Shown: piece after piece, positions 1 to 10,046 of the stretch
Position numbering within the stretch: the first letter of the stretch is position 1
Layout of the letters: the number at the start of each line of letters is the position of its first letter
NCBI GenBank assembly: GCA_963817525.1
Contig: CAWFOU010000001.1
Coordinates: 384,001-448,000, forward strand
Origin: an uncultured archaeon
GTDB lineage: Archaea; Thermoproteota; Nitrososphaeria; Nitrososphaerales; Gagatemarchaeaceae
Direction: 5' to 3'
Length of the DNA stretch: 64,000 nt
Program-made: the position numbers and the translations under genes
The notes under the pieces: model-generated
Told to the model about the DNA's origin: nothing
Databases searched by the model: none
The model's input: the letters and a program-made list of their open reading frames with translations, nothing else

Positions 1-962
1 TGGGCATCGTCCTGCGAGAAGGACTTGACCCTGAAGAGCCCGCTCGCCACCCCGCTCAGCTCGTTCCTGTAGAGCCAGTCGAAGCACGAGACCCTCAGGG
101 GAAGCTCCCTGAAGCTCCACCTCCTCGTCCGGTAGAATAGCATGGTCGGAGGGCAGTTCATCGGCTTTAGGGCGAACTCCTCACCGCCCAGGTCCGTCAG
201 GAACATGTTCTGCTTGTAATAGCCCCAGTGGCCGCTAACCTTCCACAGGGCGCTGCTGAACATCGCAGGGGTGCTGACCTCGATGTAGCCGCCCTTCGCG
301 AGCTCTCCGCGCATGAACTCGATCAGGAGGTTCCTGAGCTTCAGCCCCTTGTTGTGCCAGTAGACCATCCCCGGGGCGGGCTCCTGGAAGCTGAACAGGT
401 CGAGCCTCTCGCCTATTATCCTGTGGTCGGTCTCCGGGAGACCTGCAAAGTCGCTCTTCCTCAGCCGCGCGAAAAGCTGCTCCTCGGTGAGCTCGTGCTG
501 GGGCTTCCTCTCTGGCTGCGGGGCCGCCTCCGCCTTTGCCGCTGGCGCGGCGCTGGTGTATACACGCGACTGCTCGGCCAGAGGGTGGCCCTTTACCTTG
601 ATCTGGAACGCCTTGTTCCAGCCGAACGGCGCGCGGTAGGTCTCCAGCCCGGCCTCGTTCGCCAGCCTCTCCATGGTCTTCAGCACTTCGAGCGCGTCCT
701 TTGGCCTTGCGAGGTTCGAGCTCAGGTGGGCGTAGGGGTAGATGATTATCCTCCTGACCTTCAGCTTCTCGAGGAACGCCCTTGTCCCTTCGACCGCCTT
801 TCTTGCGACCTCGTCGTCGTCGCCCGGCTCAACGCTCACGAACAGCGCGACTATCTCCTCGTACCTGCGCTTCTGCTTGTCGGGTATGTCCTCCGCCGCG
901 GATATCTCCTTGCCTATCGGCTCGTACTCGATGAAGTCAAGGTGCTGCTGGAGTATCCTCAT
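1..962 (-). CDS. thrS: Threonine--tRNA ligase, archaeal type with N-terminal editing domain; 3' end runs off the window
   Basis: Minus-strand frame from ATG at 962 reads MRILQQHLDFIEYEPIGKEISAAED...YPYAHLSSNLA...RAPFGWNKAF...GHPLAEQS...DHRIIGERLDLF...PGMVYWHNKG...ALKPMNCPP, typical of archaeal ThrRS. It is missing from the ORF track because it has no stop inside the window. Confidence 0.95.
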   Translation of the reverse strand, partial: MRILQQHLDFIEYEPIGKEISAAEDIPDKQKRRYEEIVALFVSVEPGDDDEVARKAVEGTRAFLEKLKVRRIIIYPYAHLSSNLARPKDALEVLKTMERLANEAGLETYRAPFGWNKAFQIKVKGHPLAEQSRVYTSAAPAAKAEAAPQPERKPQHELTEEQLFARLRKSDFAGLPETDHRIIGERLDLFSFQEPAPGMVYWHNKGLKLRNLLIEFMRGELAKGGYIEVSTPAMFSSALWKVSGHWGYYKQNMFLTDLGGEEFALKPMNCPPTMLFYRTRRWSFRELPLRVSCFDWLYRNELSGVASGLFRVKSFSQDDA

Positions 963-983
963 CGGTGTTCCCCGGAGTCCTTC

Positions 984-1190
984 CTAGCCCCATCGGGCCC
1001 GTTCTATGTCTCTGTCCTTCTTGGTGGCCTTCTTCCAGGTCTTGTAGTGCTCGCGGCAAAGGTAGACCCGCCTCCCCTCACCGCCGGCGGTGAGGCCGCT
1101 CCCCGCTAGCTGGTCCCTTCCCATGGACCTCTCACTCGGGTTCTTGCAGCCTGCAATTGAGCACGTGACGCCCTTCTCGACTTTGCCCAT
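984..1190 (-). CDS. Small conserved hypothetical protein, probably Zn-binding (CxxxxC...CxxH)
   Basis: 68 aa with host-like codon usage, co-oriented just upstream of thrS; TATA-like TATAAATAT 24-32 nt upstream of the ATG. Confidence 0.75.
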   Translation of the reverse strand: MGKVEKGVTCSIAGCKNPSERSMGRDQLAGSGLTAGGEGRRVYLCREHYKTWKKATKKDRDIERARWG

Positions 1191-1213
1191 TCTGAATCCG
1201 GGCTGCCGAGTCC

Positions 1214-1232
1214 ATATTTATAATCTGTTAAC
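1214..1232. repeat. attL: 9-bp core ATATTTATA plus element arm ...TAATCTGTTAAC
   Basis: Core identical to 6613-6621; arm TAATCTGTTAAC (1221-1232) is the reverse complement of GTTAACTGATTA (6602-6613) at 11/12 positions. Confidence 0.85.
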
Positions 1233-1375
1233 GCATCGTTAACGCTTAACGTAAGGCACGCGATAGGTTCTGTCTGGGTTTTGCTAGATTCCGGCGGACG
1301 GGGTGCGGCATCGGGCGTCGCTGGCGACGATGGCGACCGTTCTTCAGGTTCTTTCTTTGGTTCGAGGTCTGTCAT
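1214..1375 (-). pseudogene. 5' fragment of the split integrase gene (int-N)
   Basis: ATG at 1375 opens MTDLEPKKEPEER...LSVNDALTD-YKY, with YKY encoded by the att core. The same YKY begins the int-C frame at 6621. An AT-rich TATA-like sequence lies ~25 nt upstream (~1399-1407). Confidence 0.75.
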
Positions 1376-1426
1376 TAGGTAGGTATGGTGTGGAGTTTGT
1401 AATAAATTCAATTTCCCTAAACGTTA

Positions 1427-1590
1427 GCCGCCCGTGTTAACGCGAAAGGGCGGCCTGATTCGGTCGGTCTAAAGCCGCCGCCGTGTCTCTAGCGCAGCGA
1501 TAGGCGCGGCCACTGGAGGCCGCGGACGGCGGCGGCGTGTGGTCTAAGGACACTGGAGGCCGCCCCGTGCTAGCACGAGAAGGGCGGCGG
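1427..1590. other. Dense cluster of GC-rich hairpins, candidate single- or double-strand origin
   Basis: Stems 1427-1433/1448-1454, 1474-1484/1526-1536 (inner 1505-1511/1518-1524) and 1559-1565/1582-1588 (inner palindrome CGTGCTAGCACG); CACTGGAGGCCGC repeated at 1511 and 1551; non-coding. Confidence 0.5.
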
Positions 1591-1592
1591 GA

Positions 1593-1670
1593 GGCGGCGG
1601 TTCTACGCGGAGCGTTTCAGCGAGCGAAATCCGTTCCCCGGAACGGTGATTGAGCGAGCTACGCCGCCGA
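1593..1670 (+). repeat. Structured direct repeat, copy 1
   Basis: GGCGGTTCTACGCGGAGCGTTTCAGCGAGCGA-[24-nt hairpin]-GAGCGAGCTACGCCGCCGA; near-identical to copy 2 apart from the variable central hairpin. Confidence 0.85.
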
Positions 1671-1755
1671 TAAGATGACGCGTAGACTGGATTGTGTTAA
1701 CTTATCTGCGCTCAGCGATTGATGGGCCAAGAATAGTCACCATAGGCCGCCCCAT

Positions 1756-2454
1756 TTATTCCGTTACCGTGGTCATTAGAGGTGGTGCAAGCAACTGTGA
1801 CTCACACAGTGGAGGCTCGTGCAACGAGCACGGTAAGTATTGCTTCGTAATGAACAAGGTAACTTGGTAAGTCCCAGAAGGCATTCCTGCAAAGGAGCCA
1901 ACGTCGCAATAGGTATAGCCGGTCTTCGGGATATAACAGGAGCTGCTCGTGGTGACATTCTGGCCAGTCGATACATCCTGGTAAAATGCAGTAGCAGTTA
2001 CCGTATAATTTGAGCCCTCAAAAGGGATGATGGTAATTGGGGTAGCATTGCCCAAGTCCTGACCCGCGAATGCGAGTGTTAGTTCGAGGCAGTTTGTATC
2101 GCACCACTTTACCGGAGAGTTCGGCGCCCACATTAGCGGATATTGAGCGCTTGATTCAACCGTTGATTGCATACTGGACGTTGACTTACTGGTTGAGGTC
2201 GGGGCAACGGTTGACTGAATGATAGAGCCGCTGGTAGAGAGGATTGAAGACGCCGAGCCGATGGAAGAACTCGAATGGACATTGTTGGGATTTTCGGGTA
2301 ATGAGCTGGTCCTCTGTGATGAAATGAGAGCGGCGGCAATCACGATTAGCCCAACAGTAATGGCGCAAGTAACAAGGAAGAAGTTCCCTGCCGCAAGGCC
2401 TTTCCTCTTTTGCCCGGCTTCAAACCTCATTCCTACCGAGCGTCTGTGGTTCAA
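1756..2454 (-). CDS. Membrane-anchored cargo protein: N-terminal TM helix, Ser/Thr-rich linker, Cys-containing extracellular domain
   Basis: 232-aa ORF with hydrophobic FFLVTCAITVGLIVIAAALI followed by an S/T-rich stretch; no family recognised. Confidence 0.75.
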   Translation of the reverse strand: MNHRRSVGMRFEAGQKRKGLAAGNFFLVTCAITVGLIVIAAALISSQRTSSLPENPNNVHSSSSIGSASSILSTSGSIIQSTVAPTSTSKSTSSMQSTVESSAQYPLMWAPNSPVKWCDTNCLELTLAFAGQDLGNATPITIIPFEGSNYTVTATAFYQDVSTGQNVTTSSSCYIPKTGYTYCDVGSFAGMPSGTYQVTLFITKQYLPCSLHEPPLCESQLLAPPLMTTVTE

Positions 2455-2511
2455 AGCGTAGAAATGAGGGCGAGGGTGATATTTCAGGGGTTCGCATCAT
2501 TGTTCTATTAG

Positions 2512-2580
2512 GTCGGGCGGTTCTACGCAGAGCGTTTCAGCGAGCGAGGATTTCATTTCCGAGCGAGCTACGCCACCGAC
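2512..2580 (+). repeat. Structured direct repeat, copy 2
   Basis: GGCGGTTCTACGCAGAGCGTTTCAGCGAGCGA-[GGATTTCATTTCC]-GAGCGAGCTACGCCACCGA. Confidence 0.85.
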
Positions 2581-2606
2581 TCGATCAGAATATAGGTTGG
2601 AGGCAG

Positions 2607-2954
2607 TCAAGCCTTAGAGGTTGACTCTACGGGAATAGGTCTGACTTCCTTCATGCTGTACGTCAACTCTTTCTTGCATCGCGGGCACGTTGCCTTGAAG
2701 GTTACTCCAATAGACCTGTCCGTTATCATGTTCTCCCAGAATGACGTAGACCTAACTCCGCCTTTGGGCTGTATCTCAGTAAGGTCTATTGTTGCGAAGC
2801 AGTGTCTGCAGATGACGCCATTGTGTGAGGAGACGTAATTCTCAATCAGGGTTTCGATGACATCATTCTTCTTGCGGCCTCCCTGCTCCTCCATTACGGT
2901 GATGCTGAATTTCTTCCACAGTTCGTCCGGGACGTCGATAGTTGTTTTTACCAA
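2607..2954 (-). CDS. Ribbon-helix-helix (CopG-like) regulator with C-terminal Zn-ribbon
   Basis: N-terminus KTTIDVPDELWKKF...KNDVIETLIENYV fits the RHH pattern; CRHC...CPRC; divergent from rep. Confidence 0.75.
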   Translation of the reverse strand: MVKTTIDVPDELWKKFSITVMEEQGGRKKNDVIETLIENYVSSHNGVICRHCFATIDLTEIQPKGGVRSTSFWENMITDRSIGVTFKATCPRCKKELTYSMKEVRPIPVESTSKA

Positions 2955-3016
2955 GCTGACTTCTGCCCTTCTGCTTTCTACGTTCTGGGTTCTGCTCTTT
3001 TAACCTTATTCCCGTT

Positions 3017-3034
3017 TACCCGCGTATGCGGGTA
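3017..3034. promoter_or_regulatory. Palindrome between divergent RHH and rep genes, candidate operator
   Basis: TACCCGC-GTAT-GCGGGTA, extendable to CCCG/CGGG at 3011/3041, next to TATA-like CCTTATAT (~3043). Confidence 0.5.
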
Positions 3035-3082
3035 TAGCGGGCCCTTATATTCGCCTTATAGAAGGGGATAAGGGGATAGCGT

Positions 3083-4243
3083 ATGCCGATGCAAACTCAC
3101 GCGTTTAAGGCAAGCATGGAGGTTCGGGTAACAGCCGAAACGTGCGGAGGGAGGAAGCCGAATCCGGGGCTGGACGCAATCAGGACAGAACTCTTTCCGT
3201 TGGAGTCGACGGAGTGTGAGGCATGCGGGACGCGTTTGTGGACCGCGAAGTGCAGCAGCGGATGCGTTACTCATGTAAGGCAGATGTGCAGGAGGGACAA
3301 TCTATGTCCCGCCGATTCGTTCAGGCGTTCGAGCGAGCTGGCGGGCGATTTTGTGCGGGTAGCTCAAGGCTTGTGTAGCGCCGCGGGGGTAAAGCTTCGA
3401 TTCTGGCGTTGGGAGGTGACGATGCCCAGAGACACGCAAAAGGGCATGACGCTGGACGAGGGGTATGAGTTCACAAGAGAGGCGAAGCGCTACGTGGAGG
3501 GCTACCTTCGGGAGAGGTTCGGGATACCCGAGGAAGTCCAGCTAGGCAGCGCGGTGGTCTTCCAGATGCTGCACAGCAGCGACCCGTTCGGAATGAAGAA
3601 GAACCATCGCGGCGCTGACCGGAGACACTTCCACTATCACGGGGTGACGCTGGGGTGGGGCGTGTGGAAGTCGGAGGCCACCGTCTATCGGGGTCCCAAC
3701 AGCTTGTTCGTCCAAGACAGCGCGATCGTGGACGGCGAGAAGAGGAAGTTCGTAAGGTTCCGCGCTGGCTGGCGCGCCGTGGTTGAGGGCCGCTTTGGAA
3801 GGTCGAGCGCTAAGGACGTGGACGGCTTCATCCGCTATGAGAGCGGGACGGCGGAGCTGTATCACCGTTTCAGATACATGATGAGAGGCGGGGTGGAGGA
3901 CTTTGCACAGTGGACCCGGAGATACGGGTATCCGCAGGACTACGACAAGGAGTGGGTGCGGGAAGCGCTGACGTGGAAGAAGGGGAGGCCGAGGGTCTTG
4001 TATTACGGCTTCCTGTCTCCCAAGAACCTGTCGGAGAAAAACAGGTTCATGCGGAAGATCGCCTTGGCGATTCCGACCAAGGCGCTGCGGCTGAGAGAGG
4101 CGAGGAAGCTGTATTGCGACAAGCATGGCGAGGAGCTACGGATAGACTTCGCGGCTGGCCTGAAGCACATCAGCGAGGTGATGGCTGAAGGCGGCACGAT
4201 AGTGGTGCGGCTTCGAAGTGCGGTCGAGTATGGAGGCGGCTAA
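3083..4243 (+). CDS. HUH-superfamily rolling-circle replication initiator, IS91-transposase-like
   Basis: Cys cluster CEAC...CSSGC...CRRDNLCP; motif I WEVTMP; HUH motif HFHYHG; motif III LYHRFRY; C-terminal RVLYYGFL as in IS91-family proteins. Confidence 0.75.
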   Translation: MPMQTHAFKASMEVRVTAETCGGRKPNPGLDAIRTELFPLESTECEACGTRLWTAKCSSGCVTHVRQMCRRDNLCPADSFRRSSELAGDFVRVAQGLCSAAGVKLRFWRWEVTMPRDTQKGMTLDEGYEFTREAKRYVEGYLRERFGIPEEVQLGSAVVFQMLHSSDPFGMKKNHRGADRRHFHYHGVTLGWGVWKSEATVYRGPNSLFVQDSAIVDGEKRKFVRFRAGWRAVVEGRFGRSSAKDVDGFIRYESGTAELYHRFRYMMRGGVEDFAQWTRRYGYPQDYDKEWVREALTWKKGRPRVLYYGFLSPKNLSEKNRFMRKIALAIPTKALRLREARKLYCDKHGEELRIDFAAGLKHISEVMAEGGTIVVRLRSAVEYGGG

Positions 4244-4267
4244 AAAATGACGCTCCTGAAAGGGTCT

Positions 4268-4323
4268 GGGGAAAGCTCAGAGAGTTTCCCCACGCTCGGC
4301 GGCAGGCGCGAAGCGCCGCCGCC
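4268..4323. other. Two hairpins immediately downstream of rep, candidate nick-site origin or terminator
   Basis: GGGGAAA...TTTCCCC (4268-4291) and GGCGGC-A-GGCGC-GAA-GCGCC-GCCGCC (4298-4323). Confidence 0.45.
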
Positions 4324-4345
4324 GCATGCAGGACGGCGAGCGTGA

Positions 4346-4573
4346 ATGGCGGAGTCAGAGCTAATCCCAAGGCCAACATGGGTCTATTTCCGCATTGTAG
4401 GCAAAGACCACAATTTGTTGAAGGTCACATTTGATGTTGATATTGGAGGTTCGTTCCTGTTGAAGCTGGATTACATAGAGAAGCTGAAAGCTGAACTGAT
4501 TGATAGGGCGTATAGTCGGTTCTCTCCCGATTCGATGGAATATAGGAACCGGTCGAAAAGACCGGACTTTTAG
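4346..4573 (+). CDS. Small hypothetical protein of the element
   Basis: 75-aa ATG-initiated ORF filling the gap; its stop overlaps the convergent gene's stop. Confidence 0.5.
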   Translation: MAESELIPRPTWVYFRIVGKDHNLLKVTFDVDIGGSFLLKLDYIEKLKAELIDRAYSRFSPDSMEYRNRSKRPDF

Positions 4574-5361
4574 CCAGTTTGCAATTCGGAGATAAACTGA
4601 GCCAGAGGAACCCCATCAACCTTGATGGGGAGCCAAGCGTCGGCTTGGGGATACATGTTGTCAAGGGAGAAGACCTTTCCGTCTTGCACGTAGAATAGGC
4701 CTTCGGCCCCTGCTGCCGTAACGTATGCATTACAGCAGACCGCTAGGTTGTTGATGTTGGTCCAATAGGGGATGTATGCGCTGGGGAAGCTGTCGGTGAC
4801 AAAGAAGATGTACGTCCCTCCTACTGTCAAGGTCGGGTATCCGAGAGGCGTCATAGTCGTCCCGTTCACGGTTCCGCCGATCCAAGCGAGGGTAGCGACT
4901 GTTCCCGCCGGAGCCACATAAGTTCCCGGTGACGAAAGTGTCTCCACATCTGTGAAGTTATACAGCATGAATGGGATGCCATTCACGGACACTGTGGTGG
5001 CTGACGTCACGTTCGCGAGCACCGCGGCTGAGTTCTGGAGTAAGTCGTGGAGAGTCGGGAACGTTGAATCAGGAAAGACGTAGACCGTGCAGTTGCACGG
5101 CCCCTTAAGGAAGCCAACCGTTTCAATACCTCCGTCTATGCTGGTTCCTATGGTGACGGTTCGCGTCTGCGATGTGACGCTAGCCGAGGCACTCGTGGTG
5201 AGGTTCTGAGTTTGGCTCGATGTTGTAGAATAAAATATCGTTTGTTCCGCTGACGAAACAGGACTCGTCGTCCTAGAATACATTGAGGCGGCGATTAGCG
5301 CCAAGAGTATCAGCGCCGCTATTACAACGGCCGCGGCGGTGAGGCCTCTCGGAGTTGGCAC
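4570..5361 (-). CDS. Membrane-anchored cargo protein: N-terminal TM helix, Ser/Thr-rich linker, extracellular domain
   Basis: 263 aa; AAAVVIAALILLALIAASM then a T/S-rich linker; same layout as 1756-2454. Confidence 0.8.
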   Translation of the reverse strand: MPTPRGLTAAAVVIAALILLALIAASMYSRTTSPVSSAEQTIFYSTTSSQTQNLTTSASASVTSQTRTVTIGTSIDGGIETVGFLKGPCNCTVYVFPDSTFPTLHDLLQNSAAVLANVTSATTVSVNGIPFMLYNFTDVETLSSPGTYVAPAGTVATLAWIGGTVNGTTMTPLGYPTLTVGGTYIFFVTDSFPSAYIPYWTNINNLAVCCNAYVTAAGAEGLFYVQDGKVFSLDNMYPQADAWLPIKVDGVPLAQFISELQTG

Positions 5362-5454
5362 GATGTGTCGGGAAGATAAATTCCCAAGGTTGATTTAAAG
5401 GATAAGAATACGAAATCGAACCAAAGGAGAAGCGCCCAAGGGCTGAGGCGCGTC

Positions 5455-6621
5455 TCAGCCCAGTTTGGCTAGGAGCTTCTGCATGATTCGGTTGTTCTCG
5501 ATGACCTGAGCCTTTAGCTCGTCGTTCTGTTTGCGAAGCGCCTCGATTTCGTCTGTATTGGCACTAGATCGGATTGGGTCTTTTGGCGTGTCTGGTTCGT
5601 TGGTTTCTCCGATTGAAAGATAGGGCGCTAGGAACCTATCGTATTCGTTGATGAGGTCTGCAAAGTCCTCCAGCGTATAGGTTCCTGCGTTGTGCCCAAG
5701 CGATTGCTTGTCGCCCATGAGGTAGTCCCATGAGTTGACGGGCATTACCGTCTTGCCTGCGATGGTGTGGAATCGCTTCCGCAGGTAGTGGCTCGTCAGC
5801 CTGACGCCGAACCTGTCAAGCGCGAGCTTGGTAATCTCGCGCCATATGCTGTCGTGGTTCGGGAAGGGTCTGTTTCGTCCCGCTGCCCTGGCGCGTTCTC
5901 TGATGCGGTCCGCCAAAGCTTTAGGGATGATGGAGATGTGTGCGTTTCGGGCCTTGGTCTGGCGCATCTGGACGTGAATTAGGACGTAGGAGCCCGCATC
6001 CTCCCACTGGTCTATGGTGACTTGGGACGCCAAGCAGGTAACTCGTTCCCCAGCGTAGGCTTGCAAGTCGATGATGTCTCGCTGCTCCTCCGTGGCGGCT
6101 TGGTAGATGGCTTGGAGGATGCCAATGCTAATCTTCTTCGTTGAATGCGTCCATGATGTGTTGAAGGACGCTTGGAGCGGCGTTCTGTTCGCCTTGAAGA
6201 TGCCTTTCACATAGGCGCCATACTGGCAGTTGGTGATTACGGGCGGCTTTGATACGAATTCAAGCAAGGCGTTGTCGATGGAAAAATCGTCGCGCCGTCG
6301 TCGCTCTCTTGTCTCACTGATTAGTTCCGAGACGGCTGTTCCTGTAATGGGTCGGTTGAGGTGCTGGAGGAAGCATCGTATGCCGTTGATTGAGTGGGTT
6401 CGTGTGCTGTGGCATACCGTGCCTCCGTTGCGCCGCCGGCTTCCCACAGATGCGTAGTATAGCTTCATGGCGGGGTCTGCTTGCAAGATGCGGTGAAGCG
6501 CTGCAAGTTCTTCGATTCGCTTGCGGTTCGGTCGTGGGTGGAATTGTCTGTAGGTGTTTACAAATGATTGCGCTTGCGGTTTTTCGCTTAACGCTTGACG
6601 AGTTAACTGATTATATTTATA
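5455..6621 (-). CDS. Tyrosine recombinase/integrase, 3' part (int-C) with complete catalytic domain
   Basis: Catalytic signature R (AGERV), K (QTKAR), HxxR (SHYLRKRF), LMG and Y (HNAGTY); C-terminal coiled coil. Frame is open up to the att core; first internal ATG at 6468. Confidence 0.92.
   Translation of the reverse strand, partial: YKYNQLTRQALSEKPQAQSFVNTYRQFHPRPNRKRIEELAALHRILQADPAMKLYYASVGSRRRNGGTVCHSTRTHSINGIRCFLQHLNRPITGTAVSELISETRERRRRDDFSIDNALLEFVSKPPVITNCQYGAYVKGIFKANRTPLQASFNTSWTHSTKKISIGILQAIYQAATEEQRDIIDLQAYAGERVTCLASQVTIDQWEDAGSYVLIHVQMRQTKARNAHISIIPKALADRIRERARAAGRNRPFPNHDSIWREITKLALDRFGVRLTSHYLRKRFHTIAGKTVMPVNSWDYLMGDKQSLGHNAGTYTLEDFADLINEYDRFLAPYLSIGETNEPDTPKDPIRSSANTDEIEALRKQNDELKAQVIENNRIMQKLLAKLG
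6602..6621. repeat. attR: element arm GTTAACTGATT plus 9-bp core ATATTTATA
   Basis: Mirror of attL; host-like GC-rich sequence resumes immediately afterwards. Confidence 0.85.
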
Positions 6622-6699
6622 GCATATTCCCGGGGCCGAGGGCCGTTCCCAGGTGCAAGTTATCAAGCCAGGCCGCCCGGCAGCAAGAGAGGCGGACGC

Positions 6700-7296
6700 T
6701 TGCTAGACAGGCTGAGGGGGTCCCTCACTGAGGTCCTCGCCTCGCTGGGCAAGAGCGCCGCCAAGCTCGTCCCCAGCCCCACCGCGTGGACGCTCGTGGG
6801 TCTGCTCTTCGCGCTGCTCGCGTTCGCATTTTACAGCCGGGGTGATCCGTTCCTGGCGGCCCTCATGCTCCTCGTCTCGGGGTTCTTCGACGTCCTGGAC
6901 GGGGCAGTGGCCCGGGCGACGGGCAGGACGAGCCAGAGGGGTGCGTTCCTCGACTCGACGCTGGACCGGGTCGCGGAGGTCCTCGTCTATCTTGGGATAA
7001 TCGTCGGCGGGTACACCAACCCCTCCCTCGTCCTAGTTGCGCTCTCCTCAAGCCTTCTGGTGAGCTACACCCGCGCGAAAGGCGACGCGCTAGGCGTGAG
7101 CCTCGCGGGCATAGGCGTCGGCGAACGGCCAGAGAGGCTGCTCGTGCTGATAGTGGCCTCCCTTCTGGGAATAGTCTGGCTCGGGGTCCTGATTGTGGCA
7201 CTGCTCGCGCTGATCACCTTCGTCCAGAGGACGGTCACCGTGAGCAGGGCGCTCGGGCGCCCAAAGGCGGCCGGCGCCACACAGCCGCCCCCGTGA
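6700..7296 (+). CDS. pgsA: CDP-alcohol phosphatidyltransferase (archaetidylinositol phosphate synthase-like)
   Basis: DVLDGAVARATGRTSQRGAFLDSTLD signature; SYTRAK and GERPER motifs. Confidence 0.92.
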   Translation: MLDRLRGSLTEVLASLGKSAAKLVPSPTAWTLVGLLFALLAFAFYSRGDPFLAALMLLVSGFFDVLDGAVARATGRTSQRGAFLDSTLDRVAEVLVYLGIIVGGYTNPSLVLVALSSSLLVSYTRAKGDALGVSLAGIGVGERPERLLVLIVASLLGIVWLGVLIVALLALITFVQRTVTVSRALGRPKAAGATQPPP

Positions 7297-7316
7297 GCTC
7301 TAGCTAGTCAAGGCGC

Positions 7317-7595
7317 TCAGAACTTGTTGTGTCTCTCGGACTTGGCCCGTACGTTCACTATACCGTAATGTACGGAACAGCTGATACAATAGTAACGAAC
7401 GGTGGTGGGCGCCGCGATGTAAGCGCCGGCCGCCCTGAGCTCCCTCGCGAGGAGGGGCTCGACCAGGCTCAGCCTCGTCGTGACCTTCTTCGCCTTGTCT
7501 CTCGGGACAAGCGCGCCGCAGTTGCTGCACGAAATGAAGCCGGAGCTCCCCTTTCCGCCCTTGGACCTTCCCCGACTCTTTCTCTTCTTTGTCAT
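7317..7595 (-). CDS. rps26e: 30S ribosomal protein S26e
   Basis: MTKKRKSRGRSKG...CSNCGALVPRDKAKK...YCISCSVH...VRAK. Confidence 0.97.
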   Translation of the reverse strand: MTKKRKSRGRSKGGKGSSGFISCSNCGALVPRDKAKKVTTRLSLVEPLLARELRAAGAYIAAPTTVRYYCISCSVHYGIVNVRAKSERHNKF

Positions 7596-7710
7596 CCTAA
7601 TACCGGGAAAGGCGGCGCCAGGGCCTGCTTAAAAGGTTGGGGCACGCCAAAGGCGACGTCCGACTCCAGAAGTCTTAAGACGCTTCCGGAGTGGACGAAG
7701 GGGAGCCGGG

Positions 7711-8610
7711 TTGAATGTCCTTGTCGCGGGTTTCATCACTATCGACAGGATCGAGCTCAACCTGCGGCAGATAGTCTCGATAGGCGGGCCTCCGTGCTAC
7801 GCCGGCCTCCTGTGCGCCAGGTTCGGCTTCGACGTGACGCCCCTCACCAAGGTCGGACCCGACTTCCCCGACGAGCAGATCGTATGGCTCGCGCGCAACG
7901 GGCTCCAGCTCCGCGCAATCGACAGGAGCAGCACAAAGAAGACGACCCGCTTCAAGCTCGTCAACAAGGGGGACGAGCGCTCGCTATACCTCGTCGAGAG
8001 GTGCGAGGACCTGACCCTCGACCAGGTCCCGGACAAGCAGTTCAACGCCTCGCTCATCAGCCCGCTGGCGCACGAGGTCTCGACGCAGCTCTTCGAAGAG
8101 ATAAGGAAGCGCTCTGACTTTTGCTTCTTGGACCCCCAGGGGTTCGTGAGGATGTTCGAGGCCTCGGGGAGGGTCATCGTCGACAGCTGGAACGACGAGA
8201 AGGTGCTCGGGAACGTGGACGCGCTCAAGATGGACCTCGAGGAAGCCCACGCGCTGACCGGGACCTCCGATGGCAAAGCCGCCCTCGTGAAGCTCTCAAA
8301 GAAGGTGAGGAAGGCGGTGGTCACCAGGGGGAGCGAGCCCGCCCTGGTTCTCGACGGGAACAAGATCTCTCAGGTGGAGGTCCCGAAGGTCAAGGTGCTG
8401 GACAGCACCGGCGCGGGGGACATCTTCGCGGGCTCGCTCATCAGCTGCTTCCTGCGGTCGCGCGACTTCCTCTGGTCGTGCTGCTTCGGCATAGCCGCGT
8501 CCTCCATGTCTCTCACCTCCATAGCCCTGGGCAAGATAGAGCTCCCGCACAGCGTCGACCAGCAGGCGAGGAAGCTCTACGCCTCGGCGACGACCGTCGA
8601 GACCGTGTGA
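7711..8610 (+). CDS. PfkB/ribokinase-family carbohydrate kinase
   Basis: N-terminal GG motif, DPQG, C-terminal DSTGAGDIF signature. Confidence 0.9.
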   Translation: MNVLVAGFITIDRIELNLRQIVSIGGPPCYAGLLCARFGFDVTPLTKVGPDFPDEQIVWLARNGLQLRAIDRSSTKKTTRFKLVNKGDERSLYLVERCEDLTLDQVPDKQFNASLISPLAHEVSTQLFEEIRKRSDFCFLDPQGFVRMFEASGRVIVDSWNDEKVLGNVDALKMDLEEAHALTGTSDGKAALVKLSKKVRKAVVTRGSEPALVLDGNKISQVEVPKVKVLDSTGAGDIFAGSLISCFLRSRDFLWSCCFGIAASSMSLTSIALGKIELPHSVDQQARKLYASATTVETV

Positions 8611-8612
8611 GC

Positions 8613-10046
8613 TCAGTAGGCCTTTGCCAGGTAGGCCAGCTCCGTCCCCTTCATCCCGCACCAGGTGCATGTCTCTGCGTGCTTCTCCTGGATGTCGACC
8701 CTCTTCCCACGCACCTCGTACCCCCCCGTCTGGGCCTTTATCTCGCGGGCGCACTCCTCCCTCCCGCAGAAGGTGAACTTGATGAAGCCCCCCACACCCC
8801 TCGCCTTGGCGAGCAGGTCCTCCTTCGATGAGGCCTCGTGGATGTTGGAGTTCAGCCACTCCCACGCCTTCCGGGACATGTCGGCGAGCATCTCGCGCTC
8901 GAGCGAGGCCAGGTGCGAGACCAGCGAGTCTTCCTTCACGCTCTCCCTCTTCCTCAGGTCTCTCCTGGTGACGGTGAGCACCTTGCTCTCCGCCTCCCGA
9001 GGGCCTATCTCGATCCTGACCGGGGTCCCGAGCATCTCCCAGCGGTAGAACTTCTCGCCCGCGGTCTCCGAGCCGTCGTCGACCTTGACCCTGTAGCCGG
9101 CATCCGCCAGCCTCCCTTCGAGGGCCCGGGCGTAGAACGCCAGCTCGGGCTCGTTCCTTATCGGGATGATCACAACCTGGACGATGGCCGCCTTGAAGGG
9201 CAGCACGAGGCCGTAGTCGTCGCCGTGGACGGATATCACAAGGGCGGCTATCCTGGAGACCCCAGGCCCGAAGCAGGTGGACTCGGGGACCACCTTCTGC
9301 CCGTCGGACGCGAGGTATGACACCTCGAACGGGCCTGTGAACCTCTTCCCCAGGAGGTGGGTCGTAGCGGACTGGAGCACCTGCTTGTCAGGCAGGACGA
9401 CGTCGTACGCGAGGCTCCTCTCCGCGCCAGGGAACCTGTCGAAGGGCTCCCTCTCGATGGGGAGGAAGGGGAGGCCGAACTCCTCGAACGTCTTCCTCGT
9501 GATCTCCATGTCCTCGGTGAGCTGGGCCTCCGCCCCCTGCCTCGTCGCAAAGACGTCGTGGGACTCGATCCAGAGGAACTCCCTCCCTCTGAAGAGTGGC
9601 CGGGTGGCCTTGGTCTCGTGGCGGTAGACCGCGCAGGACTGGAAGGCCTTGAACGGGAGGTCCCTGTAGCTCCTGATCCAGAGCGCGTACATCGGGTATA
9701 TCGCAGTCTCCGAGGTGGGCCTGATGAAGAGCCTCTCCTCCAGCTCCTCGCCCCCGGCCTTCTCCACCGAGAAGACCTGGTTCTCAAAGCCCTTGACGTG
9801 CTCCTTCTCCACAAGGAGGTTCTTGTACGGTATCAGGAGGGGGAAGAGCATCGCCTTGTGCCCGCTGGCGATGAGGTGCCTCTCGAGGCTCTCGTAGATC
9901 TCGCGTATTATGTGCATCAGGTTGGGCCTGAACACGACGAACCCCTTCACCCCGTACCTCACGTCGGCGAGCTCTGCCTTCTCCGAGACGAGGTCGTACC
10001 ACTCGCCGAACTGCTTCGTCTTTTCAGGGAGGGGGGCCTTCGCCAA
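8613..10046 (-). CDS. proS: Proline--tRNA ligase, archaeal/eukaryotic type
   Basis: IRPTSET, WIRSYRDLP, YRHETKATRPLFRGREFLWIE and C-terminal LAKAY; start placed at TTG 10046 rather than 10109. Confidence 0.96.
   Translation of the reverse strand: MAKAPLPEKTKQFGEWYDLVSEKAELADVRYGVKGFVVFRPNLMHIIREIYESLERHLIASGHKAMLFPLLIPYKNLLVEKEHVKGFENQVFSVEKAGGEELEERLFIRPTSETAIYPMYALWIRSYRDLPFKAFQSCAVYRHETKATRPLFRGREFLWIESHDVFATRQGAEAQLTEDMEITRKTFEEFGLPFLPIEREPFDRFPGAERSLAYDVVLPDKQVLQSATTHLLGKRFTGPFEVSYLASDGQKVVPESTCFGPGVSRIAALVISVHGDDYGLVLPFKAAIVQVVIIPIRNEPELAFYARALEGRLADAGYRVKVDDGSETAGEKFYRWEMLGTPVRIEIGPREAESKVLTVTRRDLRKRESVKEDSLVSHLASLEREMLADMSRKAWEWLNSNIHEASSKEDLLAKARGVGGFIKFTFCGREECAREIKAQTGGYEVRGKRVDIQEKHAETCTWCGMKGTELAYLAKAY

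Follow-up and report, generated by a model that had tools for sequence, protein, structure and literature searches.

A small integrative element of a Nitrososphaerales archaeon, probably inserted by its own recombinase at a TATA-like host core with splitting of the integrase gene

Self-splitting integrases are known from viruses of hot-spring archaea. The element described here lies in a stretch of 64,000 nucleotides (nt) from an uncultured Gagatemarchaeaceae archaeon (Nitrososphaerales; GenBank assembly GCA_963817525.1, contig CAWFOU010000001.1, positions 384,001 to 448,000), called the window below, and carries its integrase gene (int) at the right end. Suicidal integrases are characterized by the PF16795 family, probably have a single origin, and use attachment (att) sites of 40-50 bp (Badel et al. 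2021, PMC8371274). Where this review deals with self-splitting enzymes, they are treated as tRNA-targeting and mostly as a speciality of hyperthermophiles, with att sites outside tRNA genes given as untested and dyad symmetry as an open question. Integrases of the pT26-2 type are all reported to target tRNA genes (Badel et al. 2020, PMC7253208). Among 68 thaumarchaeal integrated elements, 39 reside in tRNA genes, 15 are intergenic, and 14 occupy gene 3' ends (Krupovic et al. 2019, PMC6563490). The same survey reports att sites down to 8 bp, rolling-circle initiators in some elements, and, in NitEve-E3, an SSV1-like integrase that is split upon integration. Thaumarchaeota are thus already known to have integrases that are split, att sites of 8 bp, and targets between genes. 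The first-pass annotation of the locus, made from the DNA letters without database searches, had presented a promoter-targeting, self-splitting element as a combination not known to have been described. No paper with a TATA box as the host site (attB) of an archaeal integrase was found in the literature (full texts without supplements), and the main text of the thaumarchaeal survey, its supplementary site table aside, uses neither "TATA" nor "promoter".

With a probability of about 0.8, bases 1223-6621 of the window are an integrative element inserted by its own recombinase at a TATA-like core of the host, integration splitting the int gene. As in the SSV-type systems (SSV1, pTN3, pT26-2) presented in PMC8371274 and PMC7253208, the recombination site would be found inside the int open reading frame (ORF), the gene would be partitioned into Int(N) and Int(C), and the att site would be translated within the protein; the module is likewise compact, and a directionality factor is not recognised. 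It differs from these systems, as they are presented there, in having no PF16795 or PF07935 match, a core of 8-9 bp versus 40-50 bp, and a promoter-like intergenic box versus a tRNA gene. The thaumarchaeal cryptic integrated elements of PMC6563490 belong to the same phylum, and they are also small, integrase-bearing, and delimited by very short att sites. The traits by which such elements are recognised are found here: an integrase with direct repeats, an empty site in relatives, and no recognised capsid or conjugation genes.

The element is bounded by an exact direct repeat of 9 bp, ATATTTATA on the plus strand, the bases adjoining the two copies being different on both sides (Table 1). This 9-mer or its complement occurs only seven times in the 2,822,328-bp genome (15 contigs, 61% guanine plus cytosine, GC), and two of the seven copies are the element ends. 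The first-pass annotation had bracketed the element by this core and had seen no tRNA nearby, and both statements hold: ARAGORN detects no tRNA gene in the 64-kb window. Rfam gives no match within positions 1-9000. Joining the two parts in a script yields a unit of 5,399 bp, in which Int(N) and Int(C) form one continuous integrase of 439 amino acids (aa), the same two values as had been put forward for the excised circle. The GC fraction is 0.50-0.57 across most of the element, 0.60-0.62 over a gene for a Rep-like protein, and 0.61-0.66 in the flanks.

The host locus is conserved without the element. A pgsA-like gene adjoins a small gene for a Cys-rich protein in divergent orientation in 17 of the 19 loci of relatives, and the gap between them measures 60-130 nt in 12 of the 16 loci measured and 665-722 nt in the other four. 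The empty site computed from the left flank, one core, and the right flank has a gap of 110 nt and aligns base for base with the corresponding loci L003, L005, and L006. It had been proposed that relatives should display an empty site joined at the core, which is what same-genus genomes contain: one exact copy of ATATTTATA, between flanks that agree with the computed site, is present in five of the 12 short-gap loci (L003, L005, L006, L011, and L014) and likewise on contig C55 of assembly G019, and the remaining short-gap loci harbor close variants of the core, with GTATTTATA, ATCTTTATA, and a TTTAGAA form among them. In most genomes of the genus, the site is empty. In G010, which has no pgsA beside the small gene, an insertion was considered and rejected, the arrangement being a rearrangement instead.

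The site has been occupied repeatedly, in at least four hosts or samples. Two metagenome contigs, L030 and L031, encode integrases 92% and 90% identical to that of the window, share its core, its element-side arm, and its pgsA flank, and align with the window without interruption across attR; these near-identical copies with readable DNA are both integrated at the same site. Some of the contigs that encode the homologues P0001-P0006 and P0092-P0099 are 4.3-5.5 kb long and might be episomes. In the G019 assembly, contig C128 (L076, 1-250) runs from int through the core to pgsA, i.e., an occupied attR junction, and contig C55 (L010, 1-100) links the small gene to the same pgsA sequence across one core, i.e., the empty form. 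Since the two share an identical pgsA flank, occupied and empty forms coexist in this assembly, which suggests strain heterogeneity or active excision. On L031, host-like membrane-protein genes follow directly behind int (2447-3630), together with a 57-nt copy of the int 3' end (3277-3333), and this element appears truncated or rearranged.

The element could instead be a fixed, immobile remnant, left by one ancestral integration and inherited vertically ever since. Public reads were available from one study (4 runs, in which 19-27% of the sampled words are present), and the matching contigs are short and of low depth; two of them (1095-1270 and 1095-1360) bridge attL, and as only the integrated junction is bridged, they would fit such a remnant. 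No circle or empty-site junction is listed in these contigs, a result that counts against a mobile element, although at such very thin coverage it is uninformative either way. The decay seen in relatives, with a frameshifted int in G015 and L037 and the host-like genes behind int in L031, also agrees with immobility. However, all ORFs and both cores of the window's element are intact, it is present as a single copy in the genome, most same-genus genomes are empty, and the G019 assembly holds both forms. A remnant is therefore very improbable, and the element may still be able to excise.

On the minus strand, the core reads TAT-AAA-TAT (Y-K-Y). As the first-pass annotation had it, this triplet of codons is read in frame by an ORF at the left end (1106-1411, ATG 1375) as well as by the integrase ORF (5455-6666), and a TATA-like run, TAATAAATT, is indeed located upstream of the proposed integrase start. 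In 4/4 fully bounded elements, namely those of the window, G096, G046, and G015, the end opposite int has an ORF that begins with ATG and continues into the core in the codon phase of int. The stretch between the core and residue M52 evolves as coding DNA does: among the window, L030, and L031, third codon positions account for 10/15, 10/13, and 11/14 of the differences, with synonymous to replacement changes of 8:5, 9:4, and 10:2 in the three comparisons, and the segment F-H-P-R-P-N-R-K is kept despite codon-sized indels in L076 and L037. It contains no in-frame ATG or GTG, and its sole in-frame TTG is codon 46. A start at codon 46 or at M52 would lose the first helix predicted by the structure model (residues 33-47), and M52 is not conserved across the integrase family. 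Because in-phase ORFs occur in all four elements and the evolution between the core and the first internal start is of the coding type, the site of the circular element (attP) is placed inside the int ORF, and a partition of the gene on integration is supported by these sequence comparisons. The intact int, with attP outside its ORF, that defines the pNOB8 type (type II) is not what is found, the frame being open through the core with no in-frame start before codon 46.

A different account locates attP in the 5' untranslated or promoter region of int. The integrase would then start after the core, the Int(N) ORFs would be fortuitous in GC-rich DNA, and the gene would not be split. Several observations point in this direction and thereby weigh against the reading proposed above. 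The Int(N) parts of the four bounded elements comprise 54 (window), 27, 26, and about 40 codons and are unrelated except for the portion encoded by the DNA arm, and the L-T-D-Y-K-Y ending that they share may partly be just this arm read as protein. No homologue of Int(N) was scored among 30 word-sharing candidates in longer proteins, and BLAST against 91 int homologues returned only low-complexity matches at chance level (E >= 0.15). Residues 1-30 of Int(C) are predicted as disordered in the structure model, so that the enzyme might do without the leader, and the ORFs in phase would then be less telling. Furthermore, database gene calls begin after the core, near 6468 in close homologues, and L022 has a GTG 10 codons past the core. 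The start of homologous integrases had been proposed as a test of the split gene, and its outcome is mixed, as these gene calls speak against a counterpart of the 1214-1375 segment whereas an in-phase, ATG-started one, not conserved in sequence, exists in 3/3 other bounded elements. An unsplit gene is rendered improbable by the agreement of phase in all four elements, each with an ATG, by the coding-type substitutions that follow right after the core, and by a first in-frame start that would cost the enzyme helix 33-47, M52 being no conserved alternative. On the preferred reading of a split gene, integration would remove a promoter, a start codon, and a floppy leader and not a folded domain, as judged from the structure model. 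This differs from SSV1, the N-terminal part of which matches a Pfam family of its own; Int(N) is here a short, non-conserved, and probably disordered leader. The frame of Int(C) remains open into the host flank (6622-6666) up to a TTG at 6666, and L030 has an in-frame ATG four codons before the core, so that chimeric starts for Int(C) are conceivable.

When the inner ends of the element are joined in a script through one core, the resulting attP is dyad-symmetric, with 13 of the 16 positions of each arm self-complementary and the centre inside the core. The best self-complementarity anywhere in the computed attB is 9/16. The hexamer GTTAAC, present in 89 copies in the genome, is found five times in the window, all within the element (1227, 1238, 1436, 1696, and 6602) and clustered at its ends; TTAACGC has 37 copies genome-wide, four of them in the window. 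Equivalent inverted arms surround the cores of the G096 and G015 elements. Arms and motifs together would form the layout expected of a tyrosine-recombinase core site with accessory sites. The symmetry of attP, and its near absence in attB, bears on the question left open in the review (PMC8371274) as to archaeal att sites outside tRNA genes.

The core occupies the position of a promoter element. Archaeal TATA boxes are AT-rich and lie about 26-27 nt upstream of the transcription start. Here, the core spans the 24-32 nt before the A of ATG 1190 of the small gene, as had been noted in the first-pass annotation, and its centre lies at 28 nt. Across the genome, the distance from A/T runs of at least 8 to the next ORF start peaks at 24-31 nt, with 42-53 runs per 2-nt bin at the peak, 9-28 in the bins of 4-23 nt, and 31 falling to 4 beyond 32 nt. 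This histogram was used instead of an A/T profile upstream of ORFs taken from their first ATG, in which coding periodicity persisted upstream. Such a peak is consistent with leaderless genes preceded by a TATA box. Relatives of the genus have a conserved TTTA[T/G]A motif at the core position. L008 and L014 have a gap of no more than 60-62 nt, with the box ~24 nt from the ATG of the small gene and 26 nt from the TTG of pgsA, which suggests that one box may be shared by two divergent leaderless genes. The box probably heads an operon containing the essential gene thrS, and this would account for the strong conservation of the target. Position and conservation are what the putative promoter role of the core is drawn from, which weakens this part of the reading. 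After integration, a core copy is found at the native distance on each side, and the sequences upstream of each box are exchanged; the earlier claim that core duplication leaves the host gene a TATA-like box is thus in line with the arrangement, the retained copy being a putative promoter.

Besides that of the window, the family members with both ends fixed are those of G096, G046, and G015. A further candidate, L083 (G107), was left out because its distal core could not be fixed; this element adjoins the 3' end of a host gene. The G096 element (contig C75, 9,148 bp) is delimited by ATAAATAT at 7922 and 17070, its core lying 29 nt before the TTG of the adjoining host gene, and the G046 element (contig C6) by TCCGTATA at 9996 and 15266. 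The G015 element (contig C8; L091, 6893-14214; 7,313 bp) has TATGTTCAT at 6893 and 14206, is located 29 nt upstream of the ProRS ATG, and possesses a decayed int; as in the window, a run, TAATAAATTT, precedes its Int(N) ORF. In L037, a TATAAATAT core stands beside L24e, 54 nt before its TTG with GGTGA between them, and an ndk-like gene also adjoins. The L037 integrase gene (1276-2562), related to that of the window, extends over three overlapping frames, either as a decayed copy or through assembly errors. The (T)ATAAATAT core is thus used upstream of a gene at three loci, those of the window, of L24e, and of G096. In a maximum-likelihood tree of 33 rows, the four integrases with this core that the tree includes group together with a support of 92/92, which is below the strong-support threshold of the tool; the tree excludes genes that are partial or frameshifted, L028, L046, and L037 among them. 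Other targets in the family include, besides the ProRS site, the 3' end of a DNA ligase gene, the start of hisI in L039 and L046 (read from the flanks), and the start of another gene in L024, L028, and L060. The elements of homologues, as had been anticipated, are bounded by short cores that correspond to that of the window and adjoin the 5' end of int; none of the three conditions named beforehand as refuting has thus overturned the reading of the first-pass annotation. The companion expectation, that their targets would be of the TATA type, stood for the one clade with (T)ATAAATAT cores and failed for the family as a whole, since sister lineages use other cores that are not TATA-like, a further point against the reading proposed. 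From these comparisons, short cores of 8-9 bp would be a trait of the family and TATA targeting a trait of one clade.

The coincidence with a TATA-like box may also be a by-product. The integrase would merely need a short overlap made of A and T only, and such overlaps would survive almost only in the promoters of a 61% GC genome, promoter function having no part in the targeting or in its outcome. The seven genomic copies of the 9-mer, the concentration of AT-rich runs before gene starts, and the use of other short cores by related integrases (at a DNA ligase 3' end, at a gene start, and before ProRS) agree with this explanation. It accounts less well for a locus used in at least four hosts or samples while the five other copies in the genome are empty, and for a (T)ATAAATAT core that lies upstream of a gene at each of three different loci. 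A mere by-product, an idea that overlaps with the reading of an insertion at a TATA-like core, is possible but doubtful. The five unoccupied copies are also a difficulty for that reading itself, since they imply that site choice requires more than the core; a comparison of the attB flanks of the three (T)ATAAATAT loci for shared positions gave nothing convincing.

In the proposed mechanism, the 9-bp core of a circular element would recombine site-specifically with an identical 9-bp host sequence, a TATA-box-like element in the divergent promoter region that separates pgsA from the small gene and the thrS behind it. The core of the circle would be embedded in the 5' end of the int ORF and flanked by inverted arms containing GTTAAC; with the core placed there, integration would part the promoter, the start codon, and the 54-codon leader from the folded recombinase of 388 codons. 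With the core duplicated, both flanking host genes would have a TATA-like box at its native distance, and the upstream halves would be exchanged, the former upstream half of the host facing Int(C) and element DNA facing the small gene. A comparable swap of promoter parts between element and host gene is described for pTN3-type integration in PMC8371274, where Int(C) may use a host promoter. That system inserts into a tRNA gene, in its 5' half, and the integrase promoter then drives the recombinant tRNA gene, whereas the target here is a TATA-like box of protein-coding genes. A more speculative extension, offered only tentatively, is that a compact family of tyrosine integrases in Nitrososphaerota evolved self-splitting independently of SSV, pTN3, and pT26-2, with one clade using the TATA boxes of conserved, essential operons as attB and integration amounting to an exchange of promoter halves. 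If this extension is correct, the duplicated TATA would keep both host genes expressed, the upstream promoter half of the host would be redirected onto Int(C), and the int promoter of the element would read into the operon of the small gene and thrS, thereby tying integrase expression and host gene control to the state of integration.

The integrase is a canonical tyrosine recombinase by its catalytic residues and its fold. In an alignment of 33 sequences, four residues never vary (R193, K223, R281, and Y315), and two more, H278 and H310, show a conservation of 90% or above. The AlphaFold2 (AF2) model, with a predicted local distance difference test score (pLDDT) of 87, displays a two-domain recombinase fold, for which the best Foldseek match in the Protein Data Bank (PDB) is archaeal XerA (5hxy, E = 1e-5), followed by 4a8e, Brujita Int, XerH, Cre, and lambda Int. 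The probability is 1.00 for XerA, XerH, Cre, and lambda Int, and viral integrases are matched too; the SSV1 catalytic domain ranks 30th in the list, although it is a shorter target and the ranks are not comparable. Xer/Cre-like recombinases, such as archaeal XerA, resemble it in their two domains, in the active-site residues R-K-H-R-H-Y, and in a recombination site whose short centre is framed by inverted repeats. Unlike XerA, the enzyme is encoded on a mobile element and has its recombination site within its own gene.

At the sequence level, the family stands apart. The window integrase matches no Pfam family at E <= 0.1; PF00589 is matched by 7/33 family members at E <= 0.01 (best 5.4e-7), and PF16795 and PF07935 by 0/33 each. 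In a control, SSV1 Int is recognised by PF16795 at 1.5e-61 and by PF07935 at 2.6e-34. Alignment of the family profile with SSV1 Int by hhalign gives a probability of 5.7% over 46 columns, and a search of PDB sequence profiles with the integrase returns nothing at E <= 1. The layout would work like that of a suicidal integrase, and membership of the SSV-type family is not supported, given the absence of PF16795 and the hhalign value; the comparison with SSV1- and pTN3-type integrases drawn in the first-pass annotation is accordingly corrected, in that the enzyme is not a member of these families by sequence. A profile search of 1.84 billion cluster representatives recovers 227 proteins at E <= 0.001, so the family is small and sharply separated, and a search of 97 genomes finds a match in 31, G000 included. 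IMG/VR contains no relative detectable by protein patterns or by a 20-nt attR stretch, and a collection of 50,697 phage and virus records yields no tblastn match to either Int or Rep. Some homologues (P0045, P0052, P0053, P0057, and similar ones) are of a long form of about 476-520 aa, with an extra N-terminal segment of ~120 aa that by eye resembles a duplicated N-terminal helical domain ('DPAIQLYL' vs 'DPAIEQYF').

The locus places the self-splitting layout in a mesophilic soil lineage, with a 9-bp core in a putative promoter and an enzyme for which neither Pfam nor profile comparison shows a link to the PF16795 family. It offers a concrete, testable example of a mobile element that attaches at a presumed archaeal TATA box. 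Genetic tools for Nitrososphaerales are expected to start from small integrative replicons, for which a need has been expressed (PMC6563490), and the present element, with its 5.4 kb and a defined attP/attB pair, is a candidate for this use.

Table 1. Features of the element and of its host locus, in window coordinates.
Feature	Position	Strand	Remarks
attL core, ATATTTATA	1214..1222	.	also a TATA-box-like element 24-32 nt upstream of the small gene's ATG at 1190
attR core, second ATATTTATA copy	6613..6621	.	
Element-side arm by attR	6602..6612	.	contains GTTAAC; one half of the attP inverted repeat
Element-side arm by attL	1223..1232	.	contains GTTAAC; other half of the attP inverted repeat
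Extra GTTAAC / TTAACG(C) motifs, candidate accessory integrase-binding sites	1237..1251	.	further ones start at 1436-1437, 1696, and 6588
Int(N), 54-codon 5' part of the integrase ORF	1214..1375	-	from ATG 1375 into the core; Pro/Ser/Glu-rich; sequence not conserved
Int(C), 388 codons from core to stop	5455..6621	-	N-terminal helical domain and catalytic domain
TATA-like run TAATAAATT (plus-strand letters), putative int promoter	1400..1408	-	25 nt upstream of ATG 1375; leaderless geometry
Host gene for a 68-aa Cys-rich protein (small gene)	984..1190	-	present in 40/41 genomes of the order
thrS	3-962	same strand as the small gene	begins 21 nt past the small gene's stop
Host CDP-alcohol phosphatidyltransferase gene (pgsA-like)	6700..7296	+	adjoins the small gene divergently where the site is empty
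Rep-like protein, 386 aa, putative HUH rolling-circle initiator	3083..4243	+	invariant E-x-T, H184-x-H186, Y252, Y265; Cys clusters
115-aa protein	2607..2954	-	N-terminal segment ribbon-helix-helix-like by eye; C-terminal Cys pairs with sub-threshold zinc-ribbon matches
232-aa protein	1756..2454	-	N-terminal hydrophobic segment; Ser/Thr-rich region; no family match
263-aa protein	4570..5361	-	N-terminal hydrophobic segment; Ser/Thr-rich linker; several N-x-T sequons; no family match
75-aa ORF	4346..4573	+	no family match

Among the other genes of the element, that of the Rep-like protein has homologues adjoining int in L022, L081, and L083. Ten database relatives were found, none with a Pfam domain on record, and the few that are named are called only "hypothetical protein"; Atlas neighbours include Rep_1 clusters, with a score of 0.96. 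The Pfam matches are only sub-threshold (Zn_Tnp_IS91 in 3/13 and Rep_1 in 1/13), Foldseek with the model (pLDDT 87) yields nothing significant (best E 0.21), and PDB sequence profiles yield nothing meaningful, so that the Rep assignment is weak, a point against the picture of the element proposed here. Its role as a putative rolling-circle initiator, suggested by sequence motifs, is given as a lead only. No Pfam or PHROG match to virion or conjugation proteins was obtained among the element proteins. The element probably belongs to the small rolling-circle plasmids, although it may be a virus. Two blocks of direct repeats, at 1596-1670 and 2516-2579, bracket the gene at 1756-2454; they share stretches of 32 nt and 19 nt, each with one mismatch, 920 and 909 bp apart, and fold no better than shuffled sequences (z -0.1 to -1.3). 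These blocks could be iterons of Rep or an origin.

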